Shown here: positions 49,710-60,882 of the stretch, in pieces
Position numbering within the stretch: the stretch's first letter is position 1
How the letters are laid out: every line of letters begins with the position of its first letter
Made by a program: the position numbers and the translations under genes
Notes under the pieces: model-generated
The model's input: the letters and a program-made list of their open reading frames with translations, nothing else
What the model was told of the DNA's origin: nothing
Database searches by the model: none
Assembly: GCA_964395315.1 (NCBI GenBank)
Contig: CAYNBI010000003.1
Coordinates: forward strand, 11,782-75,781
Direction: 5' to 3'
Origin: an uncultured Chromatiaceae bacterium
GTDB lineage: Bacteria > Pseudomonadota > Gammaproteobacteria > Chromatiales > Chromatiaceae
Length of the DNA stretch: 64,000 nt

Positions 49710-50366
49710 TCACGAACCCGCCGATGCCCTTTCAGCCCACAGGAACTGCAAGACCTTGCGCACGTAACGCTGGGTCTCTGGATAGGGGGGGATGCGATTG
49801 CCGTACTTCATGACCGCATTCTCCCCAGCGTTGTAGGCCGCGAGCGCCAGGCGGAGATCCTGCTCGAACAGGTCGAGCAAATGCCGCAAGTAGGTGGCAC
49901 CTCCCCTCATATTCTGTTCCGGATCCCAGATGTCCTGCACATTGAACCGCTTGGCGGTTGCCGGCATCAGCTGCATAAGTCCGATGGCGCCCGCCGAGGA
50001 AACAGCAGAAGGATTGTAGGCGGATTCCGTCCGCACCACAGCGTGCAGCAGTTCCGGATTCAATCCGTGTCGGCGCGCGGTGCGTTCGATCAGCTGCGCA
50101 TAGTCGGCACGTCTCGCAGAGGATTTGCGTGGCGACGGCGCCGCCCGCCGCCGTCCGATCGCGACGATCTTCTTGCTGTTCTCTGAGATGAGCTTCTTAC
50201 TCGTCCGCTTCCATTCGAGCCGATACTGCTTTCCCTGTAGCGGCGCATCGGTGAAATAGATCATGCCTTGGCTATCGACGTACTTATACACGTCGGCGCC
50301 CCCGGGGGATGCACCCAGCATCAAAAGCACGAGAAATCCAAACCTTGCGCCAGTCATCGCTCGCAT
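49710..50366 (-). CDS. Lytic transglycosylase (SLT domain) with N-terminal DUF4124-like module
   Basis: The SLT catalytic Glu and motifs are present in [29 protein letters not shown] and AYNAGENAV. There is a signal peptide, then [15 protein letters not shown]. Confidence 0.88.
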
Positions 50367-50656
50367 GAGGGCAGACTTTCTCTCCGGGCTGGAGCCGCCA
50401 CATCTGCTCGTATTTGGCGTTGAATCATACCCCCCGCTCAGGGAATTACCAAACTGTCAAGCCGACCTCAATCAACAAAAATCAAAATAAGGCGCGCGAG
50501 CGTGTCATCATGGCACATCCCGCACCATTCATGCGTCTGGCGAGCGATGCGCAACCCCGCCGGGATCGGGAGACGAGAGGCCCGGATACTATACAAAAGC
50601 CCGCGAGACGCAGAGCCTCGTGCGCGCCCGGAATACACCTATCCACGCCATCGCGC

Positions 50657-51265
50657 TCACGCGCCCCACACTTGGCGCAGCCTCTCCCGATTCATGGCCA
50701 ACCACTGGACCCCGATAATGGTCAATGCAGTATCGATTCCACCAGTGAATAATTTCTGAATCGCGGACGCAACATCGACAACGACCACGCGCGTGTCTTC
50801 GCCCTCGGCATCCACACCGAATGTACCCCCCGCTGCTGAGGCGTTGACGCAGCCACAGAATAGTCTTACCCGTTCAACGGAGGTGCCGGGACTGACGTAG
50901 TAACTGCCAATCGCTTCCAAGTGTTGGATTTCGCACCCCGCTTCCTCCATCGCCTCGCGCCGAGCGACTGACACCGGGTCCTCGCCATCCCTGATCACGC
51001 CCCCTACGGGCTCCAAGGTCCACGCACCGTGGCCGGCCTCCAGGGCGCCGATACGAAACTGTTCCACCAGCACCAACTCGTCGCGCCCAGGGTCATACAG
51101 CAACGCCGCCACTGCATTCAGGCCCTCTATTCGTTCGCGGACAAGAACGCGGCTACAACCGCCGGCGAAGAGACTGTGCCTAATACGAAAACGAACGACT
51201 TTCAAAAAGCCTTCGAAACAGGCCGTATTCGCAATCACGTCAACTGCATATTTCATCTGACTCAT
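50657..51265 (-). CDS. nudF: NUDIX hydrolase, ADP-ribose pyrophosphatase type
   Basis: The Nudix box is GGVIRDGEDPVSVARREAMEEAG. Confidence 0.8.
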   Translation of the reverse strand: MSQMKYAVDVIANTACFEGFLKVVRFRIRHSLFAGGCSRVLVRERIEGLNAVAALLYDPGRDELVLVEQFRIGALEAGHGAWTLEPVGGVIRDGEDPVSVARREAMEEAGCEIQHLEAIGSYYVSPGTSVERVRLFCGCVNASAAGGTFGVDAEGEDTRVVVVDVASAIQKLFTGGIDTALTIIGVQWLAMNRERLRQVWGA

Positions 51266-51422
51266 TCAGACAGCTAAAGGGTGGAATTCCGCATTCGCTT
51301 ACTCAAACGCACGCTTGAATCAATTGCTCGAATTTCCGCGTCCTTGGACGATTTGGTGTTGCAATTTCGGGCCAACACAATATAATGCGTCCATCTGCAA
51401 CACAGGCCACCATGAGGTAACT

Positions 51423-51950
51423 ATGAACCGGCGACACTTCCTCGGACTCGCCCTCTCAGCAGTAGTACCTCCCGCCTTCGCAAAAAAACAAAATAGCCAG
51501 CCTCGCATTCTCTCTCTCCGCCATCTTCACACCGACGAGAAACTCAGGATCGCCTATCGCGTCGGAGACCGCTATCAACGCGATGCGCTGCAGAAGCTCA
51601 GTCATTTTCTCCGCGATTTCCGCTCTGGGGAATCAACTGTCATCGACCCGAAGTTATTCGACATCCTCTATGACGTGAAGGAGAGAATGGGCCACCCCGA
51701 CGGTGTATATGAGGTCTTCAGCGCGTTCCGTTCACCGGGGACCAACGCCATGCTGAGGAAGACCTCTCGCGGTGTTGCCAAAGGCAGCCTGCATGTGTCC
51801 GGTCGTGCAGTGGACATTCGTCTCGAGGGAGCTTCCTTGCGAAAGGTCCGTGACTCCGCCGTGGCCTTGCACCGCGGTGGCGTCGGCTACTACCCAAAGT
51901 CGAGCTTCGTCCACCTCGACACCGGCAGTGTCAGACGGTGGGGCGCTTGA
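51423..51950 (+). CDS. DUF882/YcbK-type peptidase M15A (Tat-exported)
   Basis: The Tat motif is NRRHFLG, followed by SAFRSP.TN...SLHVSGRAVDI...FVHLDTG. ATG at 51423. Confidence 0.82.
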   Translation: MNRRHFLGLALSAVVPPAFAKKQNSQPRILSLRHLHTDEKLRIAYRVGDRYQRDALQKLSHFLRDFRSGESTVIDPKLFDILYDVKERMGHPDGVYEVFSAFRSPGTNAMLRKTSRGVAKGSLHVSGRAVDIRLEGASLRKVRDSAVALHRGGVGYYPKSSFVHLDTGSVRRWGA

Positions 51951-52102
51951 TCCAGACCGCCTGAGAGATTTTTGGCTAGATAACACTTCCCGCGAGGTGC
52001 GTGCCTCGGACAACCCGGATCCAGTCGCGTGAAACTGCCAGATTTGTTCAAGTATTTCCTAGAAAATATCAATATCTATTTGTTTTCAAAATAAATCTTA
52101 TA

Positions 52103-52624
52103 TCAAGATCTAACGGACATCGATTCCGTCGTATTCGCCTCCACCGACCCGATCTCCGCCTCCGGATGATGCCGGAGGATGGTGTTGCGCACCTCGCCCA
52201 AGCGCTGGCGCGGCACATCCACCATCAGCAGCAGTTTGCCCTCCGAGAAGGCACGCTGAAACGCGTCGAGCTGGTGGTTGTGCTCCTGACTGCCAAGCAA
52301 AGAAGTGATCAGGGCTCCGAATCCCGCCCCTGCAGCCGTTCCGGCGAGCAAGGCGCCACCACCGATCACGATGCCCGCGGGAGGGAAAGCCACGGCCAGC
52401 AATCCGCCCAACAACCCCGCGACCCCCCCAAGCCCGATACCCCAATCGATGCCATGCGCCAACTCGGTGCGCTGCCAAACGCTGGCCTCAGGCAAGTCCT
52501 TCAGCTCATGACTCAATCCCGCTATGACGTGCAGATGGCTGGCCGGAATCCCCGCCGCCTCGAGCTCCGCCACGACCGCTCGGCAACTCTCCTCGGTTGG
52601 CAGCAATGCATGGACTCTCTTCAC
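52103..52624 (-). CDS. Hypothetical membrane protein with Gly-zipper TM region
   Basis: The GTG start is preceded by acGGAGGtgggga. The central segment is GIDWGIGLGGVAGLLGGLLAVAF...GGGALLAGTAAGAGFGALI. Confidence 0.6.
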   Translation of the reverse strand: MKRVHALLPTEESCRAVVAELEAAGIPASHLHVIAGLSHELKDLPEASVWQRTELAHGIDWGIGLGGVAGLLGGLLAVAFPPAGIVIGGGALLAGTAAGAGFGALITSLLGSQEHNHQLDAFQRAFSEGKLLLMVDVPRQRLGEVRNTILRHHPEAEIGSVEANTTESMSVRS

Positions 52625-52734: not shown

Positions 52735-54621
52735 TCAACTCACCGTAGCGTGGCCGAGCGTAAGAATATCCGGGTGCCCACTGCAGTTCAGCTCCAAGGC
52801 GATGGGAGTGTCCTGCGGGAATCGTTGCGCGACGATCCAAATCTGTACGATGTTGCCGCTCAACTCGGGAAGCAGCCTGAGCGCACTGCGCATCCTGGAC
52901 CCGTCGAAAAATGCGAACGGTTCGTCTAAGAAGGCAAACTGCCTATCCTTGACGAAGCGTGCCGCCAGTTCCTCGGCCAGAGCAAAGCGCAACGCCAACA
53001 GCGTCTGGCGCTGCATCCCGCTGGAAACCTCGTCGGAGCCGAGAAAGCCGCGCTTGTCCTCCGAGTAGACGCGCACCTGCAGGTCCTCGTCCACCTCGAG
53101 GTGCCCGTAGCGCCCCTCGGTCAATCTCGGCAAAGTCCTGCGGATACTGGCGTGCAACTGCCGGTTGAAGTGATCAGAAGCGCGCTCGGCCGCCCCCTCC
53201 AGCAGCTTGCAGGCAAGCCGGCGTGTATCGAGGCCCTGTAACAAAACCTCCTGTCTTTTCTGAAGAGTCCCTTTTTCGTGATTATTTTTACTAATTTTTT
53301 CTTTATCTTTGTTCGCTCGATCGAGCGTGTCTTCCAGAATCCGATGCTGTCCCCCGAGCTCCTCCAGCAGCCGACCGAGCCATGCACTCTCGTGCTGCGT
53401 GGCCGCACGCACCTCCGGCGGAGATGCCTCCAGCGCCAGGATCCGCCGGGCCTGGCGAGCGCGCCGCTCCGCGTCCGGTTTGTCCACCGGCGTAACCCCC
53501 TGCAACGGCATCTCCCCCGGGACGAGCAAATCGTCGGCCTTCGCATCCACCCTTCCGCCGCCGACGGTACCAGGCTCGTCGATACCGAGCAGCACCTCGG
53601 CCAGGCGGCGTCCCCGCGCCCGCCGCTCACGGTCCTGCAGTCCGAGCGCGAGGCTCCCGATCAGAACTGGGACAAGCAGGATCCCGAGCACGACAGCCCC
53701 GTAGGCCGCCACCGTTTCCGCGGGCAGACCCCGGGTAGCCACGAATCCCTCCAAAGATTCCCGTAGCGCTGAAACCGGCCATAGCCGCGGATGAAACCGC
53801 AGCAGAAGCCAGATTCCTGTGACCCCGAGGACGGCGAGCAGCAGGAGACTCTGGGTCAGTCTGACCGCGCCACGCCGGAACCCGTGCATTCGGGTCCGGC
53901 GACTGGCCTCGCAGTAAGCCTCGGTCGCGGCATTGAGCTGTTCGATGCGTTGCCCGACCGCCTGCTCCCGTTCGGTGGTCTCGGCAAGCGACGCCTTGAG
54001 GATCGTCGGATCGGCGGAATCAGCCTCGAGAAGACGAAGCCCTTTCTCGATCTCGGCGAGGCGTGTCTCGATCTCCCGTAGCGATTGCTCGTCCCGCTCC
54101 ACCTCCTGGTGCAGATCCCTGGCGCAGCGCTCGAGGAGCGAGATCCCCGCCAGCCGTGTCACCGTCGGGCTGTGCGGATGGGGCGCGGCGATCTCGCGCT
54201 GGGCCAGATAGAAGGTCTCGACGTATTCGTCAAAGCCAAAGCCAAGGAGCCGCCGTAACCGTTCATTGACCGCTTCCGGTCCGCGGGCCAGCGGCGGGTC
54301 GGGCTGATCACTGGAGCTGAGGCGCGCCAACTCACCGCCGTCGCGAGCTAGCTGTCGCTGGACCTCGTACTCAATCCCGCCCGCCGCGAAGCGCATGGTG
54401 ACGGCGCCGCGTGGGGCACCCCAGCGCAGCAGCTTGCGCAACCGGCTTGGCTCCAGGGCGTAAGTGCGCCCGAACAACGCGAAGCAGATGATCTCGCCGA
54501 TCGCGCTTTTTCCGGTCTCGTTTTCCCCGCTGACCGCGATGATGCCACGCTCCGGGAGATCGGTCAGACGCAGCGTCCGGTACTTGAGAATATTCTCCGC
54601 CGCCAGAGTGCGAATGATCAT
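52735..54621 (-). CDS. Rad50/SbcC-like ABC ATPase with a transmembrane helical hairpin inserted in the coiled-coil region (628 aa)
   Basis: Walker A is SGENETGKS, the Q-loop YLAQRE, the signature SSGMQ and Walker B FAFLDEPF. Two hydrophobic helices, LLLLAVLGVTGIWLLL and YGAVVLGILLVPVLIGSLALGL, lie at aa ~258-328. The ATG at 54621 overlaps the upstream stop as ATGA. Confidence 0.8.
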   Translation of the reverse strand: MIIRTLAAENILKYRTLRLTDLPERGIIAVSGENETGKSAIGEIICFALFGRTYALEPSRLRKLLRWGAPRGAVTMRFAAGGIEYEVQRQLARDGGELARLSSSDQPDPPLARGPEAVNERLRRLLGFGFDEYVETFYLAQREIAAPHPHSPTVTRLAGISLLERCARDLHQEVERDEQSLREIETRLAEIEKGLRLLEADSADPTILKASLAETTEREQAVGQRIEQLNAATEAYCEASRRTRMHGFRRGAVRLTQSLLLLAVLGVTGIWLLLRFHPRLWPVSALRESLEGFVATRGLPAETVAAYGAVVLGILLVPVLIGSLALGLQDRERRARGRRLAEVLLGIDEPGTVGGGRVDAKADDLLVPGEMPLQGVTPVDKPDAERRARQARRILALEASPPEVRAATQHESAWLGRLLEELGGQHRILEDTLDRANKDKEKISKNNHEKGTLQKRQEVLLQGLDTRRLACKLLEGAAERASDHFNRQLHASIRRTLPRLTEGRYGHLEVDEDLQVRVYSEDKRGFLGSDEVSSGMQRQTLLALRFALAEELAARFVKDRQFAFLDEPFAFFDGSRMRSALRLLPELSGNIVQIWIVAQRFPQDTPIALELNCSGHPDILTLGHATVS

Positions 54622-54821
54622 TGCCCTTCGCCTCGCTCCAATGCCCGGAGCCGTTCCAACGCGAGCTCCATGGCAGCGCGGAACCGTTGCTCGTCGAAGG
54701 CAGCGCCGGAGTCCCTCGCCCGTTCGAGCTCCTCGCGACAATAGATTTCGAACGCGCGTGAGGGGCGGTCCCTGTCCTCTTCACTCGGCTTTCGACCAAA
54801 GGGGAGCCTGATCAACGACAC
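54618..54821 (-). CDS. Hypothetical small helical protein (about 55-67 aa), translationally coupled to the ATPase
   Basis: In-frame GTG at 54821, or TTG two codons later. The C-terminus is FEIYCREELERARDSGAAFDEQRFRAAMELALERLRALERGEGQ. GC3 is about 73%, and the stop overlaps the ATPase ATG. The start is uncertain. Confidence 0.45.
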   Translation of the reverse strand: MSLIRLPFGRKPSEEDRDRPSRAFEIYCREELERARDSGAAFDEQRFRAAMELALERLRALERGEGQ

Positions 54822-54915: not shown

Positions 54916-56742
54916 TCATTCCGACGCCCGGAAGTAGCAGGTGAGCTCGGGAACATCGATCTCCCGCGCCGCCAATCCCACGCTGGCGTTGAGCGGCGGA
55001 TCGCCACGCAGGCGGACCCTCGCCTCCAGCGCGCGCTGCGGGATCAGAACCACCGACTTGCGCTCCTCCTTCGCGACCAGGACCCCCTCTCCGCGCCACC
55101 GTTCCTGGCCACGCAACCAAACCAGCTTCCAGTGCTGGTTCGACAGGCGCTCGGCGCGCCGTACCGCGGCCGCGGCAGCCTCCGCCTCACCGACGCGCCG
55201 CGCCACCTCCTCGGTGTCGAGTGGCGCCGAGCCGGCCAGATGCGCCCGGATCTGCTGATGCACCAGGAGATCGGAGTAACGGCGAAGCGGGCTGGTCGCG
55301 CGCGTATAGATCGGGAGGCCCAGGCCGAAGTGGGGTGCGGGCTCACTCACGAGGCGCGAAGGCTTGAAGCGGCGGCGGTACGCGTACATCGCGGCCATGT
55401 CCTCGGGCTGCTCGACCTTGTCTGGCGGCGGTTGCGTGACGTACGGGATGGCGATGCATTTGTCCTGACAGAATCGGGCCGCCGTCTCCCCGGCCATGAG
55501 CATGGCATCGGTCACCAGGTTCCGGCTGCGCAGGCGTGGCAGCGGCCGAATGACCACCTGACCCTCGTTGACCCGCACGCTGACCTCGGGCAGCTCGATG
55601 TTCGCCGCGTCCTGGGCATGACGGCGGGCACGAAAACGCTGGACCGTCGAATCGAGGGACGCGAAAGGCTCCTCTCCCATGCGCCCATCTACCTCCTCGT
55701 AGCTCAACCGCTGCACCCGCACCCAGGTTCGACGGATTTCGATGTCGGACAGCTCGCCGGATTCCGAGCATCGAAAGCCGAACGACAGCGCCGGGGAGAT
55801 CTCCCGCAGGCCCAGCCCCAGCCGCAGGGTGACCTCCTCGGGCAGCATGTTGACGGTGCGCTCCGGCATGTACTGATTGGCGCCGCGGGAACGCGCCTCG
55901 CGGTCCAGCTCGCTGTCCGGCGTCACCAGGGCCGCGACGTCTGCCACGTGCACCCAGAGCCTGTCACCATCCAGACTGAGCGCATCGTCGGGATCCCGAT
56001 TGCCCTCATCGTCAATGGCATAGGCCAAGAGATGGCTCAAATCCAGACGATCCTCCTCGGGCAGATCGGGCACGTACAGATCGGGATCCGATTCCGGAAG
56101 TCCATTGCGCGCCGGGTGAGGGTTGTGATCCGGCGACCAATGGCCCACCTCGATCAGCGCGCGGTGCGCGTTCTGGGGCGTCTCCTGGTGGCCGAGCGCC
56201 TGCAGGATCCGGCTTCGCTCGGATCGTCCGAGCGCCAGGCGCTCCACCTCGACCAGGCGCTCCGCGTCTTTCGGTGCCGGGCTCGACCGCGCCATGCGCT
56301 CGAGGAACTCCTGCCACGCGCGCTCCGATTCCGCCTTGGCCTGTCGCTGCGCCCGGTCCGACTCCACCTGCTCGCGGGTTCGGACCTGTATCGCTGCCGG
56401 GGTACCCGAAAAGTAGAGCCCTTCCGCCACGACCTTCCAGACCGACCATGCCGCCGCAGGCGAGAACTCGTCGTAAGCGAGCTCGGCCAGCTCCTTGAGG
56501 CTCGTCTCCCCGCCCTCGAGCAGCTCCCAGGCGGCGACCAGCTCGCCCTCCATCGGGGCCAGCTCGCCCAGGCTCTTGATCGGACCCGGGTGCAGCAGCT
56601 CGATGTCCTTGGGACGGACCCGCTTGACCTGGCCGCCGTCGAGACCAATCTCGATCTTCTCGCCCAGAGACAACACCCGCGCGGGATGAGTCTTGTAGAG
56701 CACCAGGCTGTCCACCCGGACATTGGATTGATGAATACTCAA
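54916..56742 (-). CDS. RNB-domain (RNase II/R family) exoribonuclease
   Basis: The RNB motifs are AIDDEGNRDPDDALS...HVADV, ATSPLRRYSDLLVHQQ and the rest of the RNB set. The only full-length start is a TTG at 56742. Confidence 0.85.
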   Translation of the reverse strand: MSIHQSNVRVDSLVLYKTHPARVLSLGEKIEIGLDGGQVKRVRPKDIELLHPGPIKSLGELAPMEGELVAAWELLEGGETSLKELAELAYDEFSPAAAWSVWKVVAEGLYFSGTPAAIQVRTREQVESDRAQRQAKAESERAWQEFLERMARSSPAPKDAERLVEVERLALGRSERSRILQALGHQETPQNAHRALIEVGHWSPDHNPHPARNGLPESDPDLYVPDLPEEDRLDLSHLLAYAIDDEGNRDPDDALSLDGDRLWVHVADVAALVTPDSELDREARSRGANQYMPERTVNMLPEEVTLRLGLGLREISPALSFGFRCSESGELSDIEIRRTWVRVQRLSYEEVDGRMGEEPFASLDSTVQRFRARRHAQDAANIELPEVSVRVNEGQVVIRPLPRLRSRNLVTDAMLMAGETAARFCQDKCIAIPYVTQPPPDKVEQPEDMAAMYAYRRRFKPSRLVSEPAPHFGLGLPIYTRATSPLRRYSDLLVHQQIRAHLAGSAPLDTEEVARRVGEAEAAAAAVRRAERLSNQHWKLVWLRGQERWRGEGVLVAKEERKSVVLIPQRALEARVRLRGDPPLNASVGLAAREIDVPELTCYFRASE

Positions 56743-59636: not shown

Positions 59637-60735
59637 TCACAAGCCGCCCTTCAGGCTGGCCTCGATGAAGGGGTCCAGATTGCCGTCCAGGACCGACTGG
59701 GTGTTTCCGATCTCGACGTTGGTGCGCAGGTCCTTGATGCGCGACTGATCGAGCACGTAGGAGCGAATCTGGCTGCCCCAGCCGATATCGGACTTGGTGT
59801 CCTCCAGGGCCTGCTGGTCCTCGCGCCGCTTCTGCATCTCCAGCTCGTAGAGCTTGGCCTTGAGCTGCTTCATGGCCTGGTCCTTGTTCTTGTGCTGGGA
59901 GCGGTCGTTCTGGCACTGGGTCACGATATTGGTGGGCAAGTGGGTGATGCGAACCGCGGACTCGGTGCGGTTCACATGCTGGCCACCCGCGCCGCTGGCA
60001 CGGTAGACATCGATCCGCAGGTCCGCCGGATTGATCTCGATCTGCACCGAGTCGTCCACCTCCGGCGAGACGAACACCGCAGCGAAGGAGGTGTGGCGCC
60101 GGTTGCCGGAATCGAACGGGGACTTGCGCACCAGGCGGTGCACGCCGGTCTCGGTGCGCAGCCAGCCAAAGGCATACTGCCCCTGGAAGCTGATGGTGGC
60201 TGACTTGATCCCCGCCACTTCACCGGGCGAGACCTCCATCAGCTCGGTCTTGAAGCCGTGGCGCTCGCCCCACCGCAGATACATGCGCAGCAGCATCTCC
60301 GCCCAGTCCTGAGCCTCAGTGCCCCCTGAGCCGGCCTGGATGTCGAGGAAGGCGTTCTTGTCGTCCATCTCACCGGAGAACATGCGGCGAAACTCCAGAT
60401 CCGCCACCCTTTTTTCGTAACCGGCCAGGTCCGCAATCACCGCATCTACCGTGCCCGCGTCGCCCTCTTCCACCGCCATGGCCAACAGGTCCGCGGCGTC
60501 CGCGAGACCCGATTCCAGGACATCAATGGTCTCGACGACCACCTCCAGGGCAGCGCGCTCGCGTCCAAGGGACTGCGCCCGCTCCGGGTCGCTCCAGACA
60601 TCGGGCTCTTCGAGCTCGCGCAGGACCTCGGTCAGGCGCTCCTTCTTCTCCGGGTAGTCAAAGATACCCCCTAAGGGACTGTGTGCGTCCCTTGAGGTCG
60701 TTGATCTGTGAAACGATCGGGTTGATGTCCTGCAT
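59637..60735 (-). CDS. prfB: Peptide chain release factor 2, requiring a programmed +1 frameshift
   Basis: Frame 0 gives [25 protein letters not shown] followed by TGA (60735-60661). The +1 frame continues DYPEKKERL...SPF...GGQHVN (60659-59637). The join is complement(59637..60659,60661..60735), giving 365 aa. Confidence 0.93.
60657..60672 (-). other. RF2 autoregulatory frameshift site
   Basis: The minus strand reads AGGGGG TAT CTT TGA C, an SD-like element plus the CUU UGA C slippery/stop context. Confidence 0.9.
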
Positions 60736-60882
60736 GGACGCCTCGGCATCTGAAAAGCTGATCATGTTAGCGCAAACCATTGTTCGGGAGAAAGAAAGAT
60801 CCGGCGCGGTGCCCGGGAACATGAGCGTACGAGCGTCGTCTATACTGATGTCACTCCAAATCGATACGCTCCGACCCCCATC

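Follow-up and report, generated by a model that had tools for sequence, protein, structure and literature searches.

A Rad50/SbcC-type ATPase with a predicted membrane hairpin at its coiled-coil tip, and its small putative partner, in sulfur-oxidising Gammaproteobacteria

Rad50/SMC proteins are understood as soluble DNA machines, with arms that end in a hook or a hinge. In Rad50/SbcC, the head carries Walker A, Q-loop, signature, Walker B and D-loop motifs and is split by an antiparallel coiled coil. An ATP-binding cassette (ABC) ATPase with the same kind of head was identified in a 64,000-nt stretch of DNA (contig CAYNBI010000003.1; called the window below, and the reference for all coordinates unless another locus is named) from an uncultured Chromatiaceae bacterium, and in the family of this ATPase the tip of the arms is swapped for a predicted membrane anchor. 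The ATPase gene is preceded by a small open reading frame (ORF), and these two genes will be called the pair. A literature search found no paper on this ATPase family or on any membrane-anchored Rad50/SMC-like ATPase.

SbcE (YhaN) of Bacillus subtilis seems to be the closest known analogue, by a resemblance of layout which does not imply homology. SbcE is SbcC-like and has no CxxC hook, and a hydrophobic, insoluble central domain lies between its heptad regions; transformation and the repair of double-strand breaks both involve it, and in competent cells it accumulates at the poles (PMC2811018). The protein has 963 aa, each arm measures about 300 aa, and its partner is the SbcD-like protein SbcF/YhaO (PMC2811018). 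The ATPase of the window shares with SbcE the SbcC-like heads, the hydrophobic centre, the lack of CxxC and a 3'-5' exoribonuclease gene alongside, while it differs in its short arms, its small helical partner, a Gln at the H-loop and the absence of an SbcD-like partner. Pfam AAA_27 (YhaN) gave no match to the ATPase at E up to 0.1. To our knowledge, the hydrophobic centre of SbcE/YhaN has never been explained.

Compared with Rad50/SbcC, the ATPase has arms of about 80-100 aa instead of 200-500 aa, a predicted two-helix membrane hairpin at the tip where the zinc hook would be, a Gln at the expected position of the H-loop His, and no adjacent Mre11/SbcD gene but a dedicated 65-aa partner. Three defining traits of Rad50/SbcC are thus missing: the zinc hook, the H-loop His and a neighbouring nuclease gene. 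The hairpin at the tip also separates it from SMC proteins of condensin type, as a hinge domain is absent. As for a counterpart of kleisin, a predicted helical hairpin partner of 65 aa is present, for which no similarity to anything was detected by sequence or fold. LmuB of Lamassu, JetC of Wadjet, Mad3/Mad8 of MADS and AriA of PARIS resemble the ATPase in their Rad50/SMC-type heads, coiled coils and small partners; however, the partner genes of these systems (LmuA/LmuC, JetA/B/D, AriB and mad1-8) are absent at the ATPase locus, which lies at a fixed core-gene site and not in a defence island or a mobile element, and none of the best-matching solved structures is described as membrane-embedded. 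ABC transporters, MacB and FtsEX have a multi-helix membrane domain with coupling helices, whereas the ATPase has only the predicted two-helix hairpin at the coil tip, together with a Rad50/SMC-type head. Mitofusin, atlastin and bacterial dynamin-like proteins also have a dimerising nucleotide-dependent head, from which a helical stalk leads to a membrane hairpin and a further helix runs back, but their heads are GTPases and not ABC ATPases, and the likeness is one of layout only, with no homology to the ATPase. By analogy, the ATPase may work like a Rad50/SMC clamp.

The ATPase gene was located on the reverse strand at 52735..54621, as were all other features given below with window coordinates unless stated otherwise. 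The mechanical call of its ORF was 52735..54741, which gives 668 aa from an upstream TTG. Since all homologues in the alignment begin at the ATG equivalent to 54621 (MII...), the length of the protein was taken as 628 aa. Walker A is GENETGKS (aa 32-39, 54505..54528). Among 188 family members, its residues G32, N34, E35, G37 and K38 reached a conservation of at least 93%; C46, R52, W67, R89 and C613 were conserved to the same degree. The Q-loop YLAQRE (aa 138-143, 54193..54210) is followed by PHPHSP (aa 147-152, 54166..54183), a motif of this family revealed by alignment and conservation. In the C-terminal lobe, the ABC signature motif SSGMQ (aa 533-537, 53011..53025) is followed by Walker B FAFLDEPF (aa 562-569) and the D-loop AFFD (aa 570-573), which together occupy 52903..52938. 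Walker A, Q-loop, signature and Walker B with D-loop were each supported by conservation and by a check of the coordinates, and the Q-loop by alignment as well. All residues for ATP binding and for the usual ATP-sandwiched head dimer are conserved.

The ATPase is a split-head ABC ATPase of Rad50/SbcC type. It matched Pfam AAA_23 (7e-10), while SMC_N (26.8 against a threshold of 40 bits) and SbcC_Walker_B stayed below threshold. Among NCBIfam models, archaeal Rad50 was matched only partially, over the N-terminal lobe, and the scores were far under the cut-offs, with 52 bits against 1087 for the Rad50 equivalogs and 19 against 478 for the sbcc subfamily. By sequence, Rad50 was its best relative in the PDB (3e-18 with the single sequence and 3e-35 with the family profile). 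An AlphaFold2 model of the monomer, built on 44 homologues, reached a mean pLDDT (predicted local distance difference test) of 78.6, and its best Foldseek matches were the heads of Rad50, SMC, SbcC, LmuB and JetC, head-plus-coil structures included. Public sources call homologues of the ATPase 'exonuclease SbcC'.

The coiled coil and its tip could be followed in the same model, in which an antiparallel coiled coil (161-241/401-500) sits between the N- and C-terminal head lobes, so that the head halves would be joined by short arms of about 12-15 nm. The ascending arm (aa ~161-241, 53899..54141) was predicted as the helices H161-201 and H205-241, and it is followed by a putative transmembrane helix 1 (aa ~252-278, 53788..53868; H246-276 in the model) with RRTRMHGFRRG before it. 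A short loop (aa ~279-300, 53722..53787), predicted to be periplasmic from the alignment, its near-neutral charge and a helix H283-297, contains a partly conserved LWP motif. Then putative transmembrane helix 2 (aa ~301-330, 53632..53721; within helix 301-348 of the model) has RERRARGRR after it. A linker of variable length (aa ~350-383, 53473..53574), with pLDDT of 33-42 and many indels in the alignment, leads from there to the descending arm and appears to be disordered. The descending arm (aa ~401-500, 53122..53421) was modelled as H384-395 and H401-500, and its membrane-proximal start carries DxPDxERRxRL...EVRAA..HE.AWL (aa 380-416), which is near-invariant among closer homologues.

Both transmembrane helices were called from hydropathy, flank charge, the model and conservation in the family. 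Kyte-Doolittle means over 19 residues rose up to 2.1 in helix 1 and 2.7 in helix 2, and the outer flanks of both helices were rich in K/R, with a net charge of +4 each. The two hydrophobic helices with their charge pattern were found in 17/17 aligned homologues; at a strict threshold both helices were present in 172 of 202 family proteins, and most of the others had one clear segment. A CxxC zinc hook was not found at the coiled-coil tip by alignment, hydropathy or AlphaFold2, and the two hydrophobic helices stand there instead. Hydropathy, charge pattern and modelled helices thus point to a two-helix membrane hairpin which forms the tip and replaces the zinc hook. As K/R clusters mark both cytoplasmic ends, both termini should lie on the inner side, and the heads would hang in the cytoplasm about 12-15 nm beneath the inner membrane. 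The original prediction, made from the sequence of the window, had described a Rad50/SbcC-like split-head ATPase of 628 aa and a transmembrane hairpin in place of the hook. The first was borne out by AAA_23 and by the Rad50 sequence and Rad50/SMC fold matches, and the second by hydropathy, the model and the conservation in the family; the motifs it had named (Walker A, Q-loop, signature, Walker B and IWIVAQ) were all reproduced by the coordinate check. It had also placed two hydrophobic helices in the middle of the coil about 26 aa apart, of which the helices stand and the gap is slightly shorter, the hydrophobic cores being ~20-22 aa apart. A mid-coil membrane hairpin was likewise observed in a distant relative of 901-903 aa (P0060; L084 7861-11327 and L093 285-4598).

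At the H-loop position the ATPase reads IWIVAQ (aa 594-599, 52825..52842), and Gln599 would stand at the position of the His. The profile alignment to Methanocaldococcus jannaschii Rad50 stops at V597, opposite the last Ile of QMIII in that chain. Because it ends two residues before Q599, the placement relies on the Rad50 motif xxx-S/T-H, which would put Q599 on the H-loop His. Q599 was conserved in at least 93% of the 188 family members, and in a pattern search of the 202 family proteins Gln closed the motif Q.W..[ASGT]. in 146 of the 149 proteins that have it. P0060 reads VTIH near the H-loop, so the His is apparently retained in this relative, which suggests that the Gln is a later acquisition of the ATPase family. 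TAP1 carries Gln at the H-loop His position. Such a family-wide replacement of His by Gln would be a natural variant for studying how fast clamps need to hydrolyze ATP.

The small gene directly upstream was placed at 54618..54815 on the grounds of sequence, conservation, substitution rates, homologues and an AlphaFold2 model. Two start codons come into question, TTG (54813-54815) for a protein of 65 aa and GTG (54819-54821) for one of 67 aa; the TTG has AGGTG 5 nt upstream, is aligned with the ATG of the closest relatives, and yields the 65 aa typical of the family. Its stop overlaps the ATG of the ATPase as ATGA. At 85 of 88 related loci, an ORF of ~65 aa lies right next to the start of the ATPase, and in 76 of 80 genome loci the stop and the start overlap as ATGA or GTGA, the stop beginning 1 nt after the first base of the start. 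The ratio of nonsynonymous to synonymous substitution rates (dN/dS) was 0.17-0.48 against eight relatives, with one comparison saturated, and the small ORF is under purifying selection. A profile search revealed 205 free-standing homologues of 52-71 aa, with the conserved core F..YC..E.ERRRNSGE.FDE..Y..A..L.L.RL..LE.EG. In the model, a disordered N-terminus of ~18 aa is followed by a hairpin of H20-38 and H44-62 with pLDDT >93. Taken together, sequence and model argue that the small ORF encodes a real, conserved and translationally coupled helical hairpin protein. A tiny helical upstream ORF in an ATGA overlap had been foreseen from the sequence, with the caution that it might not be conserved; its presence in 85 of 88 loci and the 205 homologues agree with the former, as do the 76 overlaps, dN/dS and the model.

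The best PDB sequence match of the small protein was Cullin-3 (E 0.04), which was dismissed as chance, and a 221-aa protein upstream of P0060 was not detectably related to it. NCBI names homologues of 61-71 aa (P0357, P0359, P0421, P0426, P0450 and P0469) 'nodulation protein E'. NodE is a much larger enzyme, and the name looks like a propagated misnomer.

The pair is a conserved, chromosomal and vertically inherited two-gene unit of sulfur-oxidising Gammaproteobacteria. In a scan of one genome per species, at least 400 relatives of the ATPase were found; the best 80 of 400 were all from Gammaproteobacteria, mostly Chromatiaceae and Sedimenticolaceae, and included Chromatiaceae, Sedimenticolaceae with Thiodiazotropha, Thiosymbion, Achromatium, Thiolapillus and Solemya symbionts. 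When 1.84 billion representative proteins were searched with a profile, 466 clusters matched at E up to 1e-30. By length the proteins form two groups, one near 620 aa and one near 750 aa, and the arms are longer in the second. In the window and in most loci the gene order is prfB, lysS, ygfZ (opposite strand), a gene of an RNB-family protein, the small ORF and the ATPase; beyond the ATPase, the window and its closest relatives have genes for peptidase M15, NUDIX, a lytic transglycosylase and DUF1631. This position among core genes is held across divergence down to 35% identity. Identity of the ATPase tracks that of RNB, LysS and YgfZ across loci (rho 0.53-0.67), which fits vertical descent of the pair. 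No family member was found on 72,556 plasmids or in 50,697 phage records, where only N-terminal-lobe matches to true SbcC appeared, and a mobile origin of the pair was rejected for want of plasmid or phage copies. At the block site, the pair resembles a cassette that some genomes have and others lack. In Thioflavicoccus mobilis 8321 and Thiocystis violacea the order is prfB-lysS-ygfZ-RNB-peptidase M15-SLT, with nothing between the RNB and peptidase genes; the small ORF, the ATPase, a 173-aa gene found after the ATPase in the window, and NUDIX are all missing at this site (L090 7001-9573; L091 7001-9594). As the pair is absent from its usual site in these two cultured Chromatiaceae, it appears to be dispensable.

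The architecture of the pair was described above; for its substrate and role we propose, with about an even chance, a dimeric clamp gated by ATP. It would be anchored beneath the inner membrane and probably act on nucleic acid, and the small protein would serve as an adaptor of the head or arm. Two membrane-anchored copies of the ATPase would engage their heads on ATP, and the engaged heads would form a small closed ring, or clamp, with the membrane. Gln at the H-loop might slow hydrolysis, and a slow hydrolysis would make the clamp a long-lived switch or tether instead of a fast motor. The small protein could bind the arm base or the head, like the Rad50-binding helix-loop-helix of Mre11 or the end of a kleisin. 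The cargo would most likely be nucleic acid held at the membrane face, in analogy with Rad50 heads and B. subtilis SbcE. The leads to such a cargo are the Rad50 head homology, the SbcE precedent and a ComF-like gene after P0060. In the profile alignment, R100 of the ATPase was aligned with K99 of Thermotoga maritima Rad50, and R113 stands one residue before K115; we take K99 and K115 to be DNA contacts.

Several points weigh against this proposal. Where Rad50 has K108/K109, the family shows acidic or proline-rich sequence in place of basic residues, and the Rad50-like DNA-binding surface thus seems only partly kept. The substrate is assigned by analogy instead of on a direct basis, slow hydrolysis through His-to-Gln would follow from other ABC proteins, and the dimer, the ring and the binding site of the partner are read into a model that is a monomer. 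Sequence and fold comparisons with Pfam, NCBIfam, PHROGs and the PDB revealed no relative of the small protein. In addition, the apparent dispensability of the pair would suit either an accessory or a housekeeping role.

Nucleases could in principle give the pair another meaning. It might be a degenerate or split SbcCD locus, in which an ordinary SbcC has lost its neighbour and SbcD is encoded elsewhere, and the public name as well as the resemblance of the N-terminal lobe to SbcC and Rad50 speak for that. We hold it highly improbable, since the protein has 628 aa against about 1050 aa for SbcC, a conserved predicted membrane hairpin replaces the CxxC hook, the ATPase has its own 65-aa partner, and its scores are far below the NCBIfam sbcc and Rad50 cut-offs. 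Besides, searches by tblastn with SbcD-type queries from E. coli, Pseudoalteromonas and Miltoncostaea, together with a small hidden Markov model, revealed no SbcD/Mre11-like gene anywhere in the window of 64 kb, nor up to about 8 kb from the ATPase at 87 related loci (0/87), and the split locus was rejected on this result. This agrees with the original prediction, in which no such gene was seen nearby and homologues paired elsewhere with an SbcD-like gene were named as the case that would speak against it. The same prediction had suggested the neighbouring RNB protein as a possible, different nuclease partner. The RNB gene (54916-56742) lies just upstream of the small ORF and encodes a 3'-5' exoribonuclease of the RNB family (Pfam RNB 1e-57, plus HTH_RNase_II and S1 domains), and it could make the pair a membrane-tethered unit for RNA or DNA processing. 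Of the 64 loci whose flanks reach 5 kb or more, 45 (about 70%) have RNB upstream in the same orientation, with a median gap of 116 nt, and in the window no terminator-like site stands between RNB and the small ORF; further, an HrpB-like RNA helicase gene is directly downstream in Thiodiazotropha-type loci, and B. subtilis sbcE/yhaN adjoins yhaM, a 3'-5' exoribonuclease gene (PMC2811018). Yet the pair occurs without RNB in 19 of these 64 loci and in the ~750-aa branch, the two Chromatiaceae mentioned above keep RNB in the block without the pair, and insertions of 0.4-9 kb part the two in several loci, e.g. one of ~9 kb with genes for an IS110-family transposase and two-component regulators in Thiosymbion (L081 4049-5041). 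The RNB family is also far larger (at least 3907 clusters of homologues against 60 for the ATPase in the same kind of search), and the linkage is not tighter than that of ygfZ-RNB or prfB-lysS. A working partnership with RNB is therefore decidedly unlikely. RNB as an obligate partner was rejected, because both can be found without the other, and we conclude that RNB is a neighbour by descent and not a core part, though it may have a looser functional tie to the pair. The core unit would contain no nuclease, and none accompanies the pair consistently.

The lack of a housekeeping annotation and the patchy occurrence of the pair, with its absence from the usual site in T. mobilis and T. violacea, would also suit an accessory anti-phage or anti-plasmid system, in which the SMC-like ATPase senses foreign DNA and the hairpin or a downstream membrane protein acts as abortive-infection effector. 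Lamassu and Wadjet are built around SMC-like ATPases, the Foldseek matches included LmuB and JetC, and PADLOC gave partial matches, the best being mad3 (8e-16) over aa 428-598 in the C-terminal lobe, with LmuB over aa 18-52. However, no PADLOC match was full-length, and the neighbouring genes (RNB, YflT-like, peptidase M15 and NUDIX) gave no relevant PADLOC match and comprise no nuclease, methylase or other defence gene of such a system. The pair is fixed among core genes down to 35% identity and diverges together with host genes, plasmid or phage copies are lacking, and the ~750-aa branch lies among unrelated chromosomal genes without recognised defence or mobile-element genes. A defence role is considered unlikely on this evidence, and a known defence system was rejected, as the PADLOC and PHROGs matches were only partial and confined to the head domain; a hint at defence given with the sequence was thus not upheld. 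Membrane mechanics without nucleic acid would be another way to use the hairpin: head engagement might pull on the arms and hairpin, and so pass a signal or force across the membrane, or tether or remodel membranes. Transmembrane helix 1 runs on almost directly from the ascending arm, the periplasmic loop has the partly conserved LWP motif, small membrane proteins of three unrelated kinds are often encoded after the ATPase gene, and the DNA-contact positions of Rad50 are only partly conserved. But conservation across the family lies in the heads and not in the hairpin or loop, the loop has only about 20 aa, the floppy linker of ~35 aa from transmembrane helix 2 to the descending arm would transmit force poorly, and the downstream membrane proteins are not universal. 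This role seems unlikely.

For the ATP-gated clamp tethered under the inner membrane, a wider claim can be made tentatively and with less than even confidence: the family may be a new class of SMC/Rad50 type, an integral inner-membrane homodimer forming a nuclease-free ATP-gated ring with a 65-aa subunit, with a role on nucleic acid or across the membrane, and a Gram-negative counterpart to the centre of SbcE/YhaN. If the proposed clamp is real, it would show that a Rad50-type clamp driven by ATP can also work while fixed in the membrane, and DNA tethering, handling of incoming DNA and signalling across the membrane would be possible roles. With just two genes, the pair is a simple system in which to study the function of a Rad50-type clamp that is fixed in the membrane, and, if the clamp is real, its short arms and two genes would also suit work on what the hydrophobic centre does in SbcE/YhaN of B. 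subtilis.

Downstream of the ATPase the genes vary, and the conserved core therefore consists of two genes. In the window a possible optional accessory gene was found 110 nt downstream (52103..52624), encoding a YflT-like protein of 173 aa with a glycine-rich membrane segment and a weak match to Pfam YflT. It directly follows the ATPase on the same strand in 17 loci (the window and 16 others, in Chromatiaceae, Achromatium and a Thiodiazotropha-like genome) and is absent in many others. In Sedimenticolaceae, a two-helix membrane protein of ~62 aa with the motif C..C.FMR comes after the ATPase (e.g. L018 9930-10118), and in Endothiovibrio-type loci a three-helix membrane protein of 114-118 aa overlaps or abuts the ATPase stop (L082 10220-10576; L087 8225-8569). 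Nothing obvious follows the ATPase in many loci. A universal downstream membrane-protein partner was rejected, since the downstream gene varies and is often absent. An apparently conserved downstream ORF of 430-450 aa was likewise discarded, as its composition is biased in the manner of spurious ORFs in high-GC DNA and it had no SbcD match. The HrpB-like protein of Thiodiazotropha-type loci is a DEAH-box helicase encoded directly downstream of the ATPase (L054 3246-5762; also L063, L064, L079 and L048), and is a second neighbour from RNA metabolism besides RNB. A canonical smc gene (about 1170-1180 aa) was observed 1.8-3.7 kb downstream of the ATPase in seven loci of Thiolapillus/Sedimenticola type (L027 4235-7786; L030 11686-15195). 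The ComF-like gene after P0060, with a double zinc ribbon and a phosphoribosyltransferase domain, follows directly in L084 and lies beyond a PIN-like ORF in L093, and the two P0060-type lineages having it are 54% identical.

No Rfam match was obtained in the window at 50-62 kb, no promoter-like site was seen between the genes, and terminator-like sites were no commoner than chance. The G+C content falls to 0.576 at 50001-52000, compared with about 0.65 over most of the window, and this low-G+C stretch covers the NUDIX and peptidase M15 genes beside the cassette. At the other end of the block, prfB contains a classic programmed +1 frameshift site, AGGGGG TAT CTT TGA C (60657-60672, reverse strand), because of which the ORF 59637..60749 starts with an N-terminus that looks out of frame.

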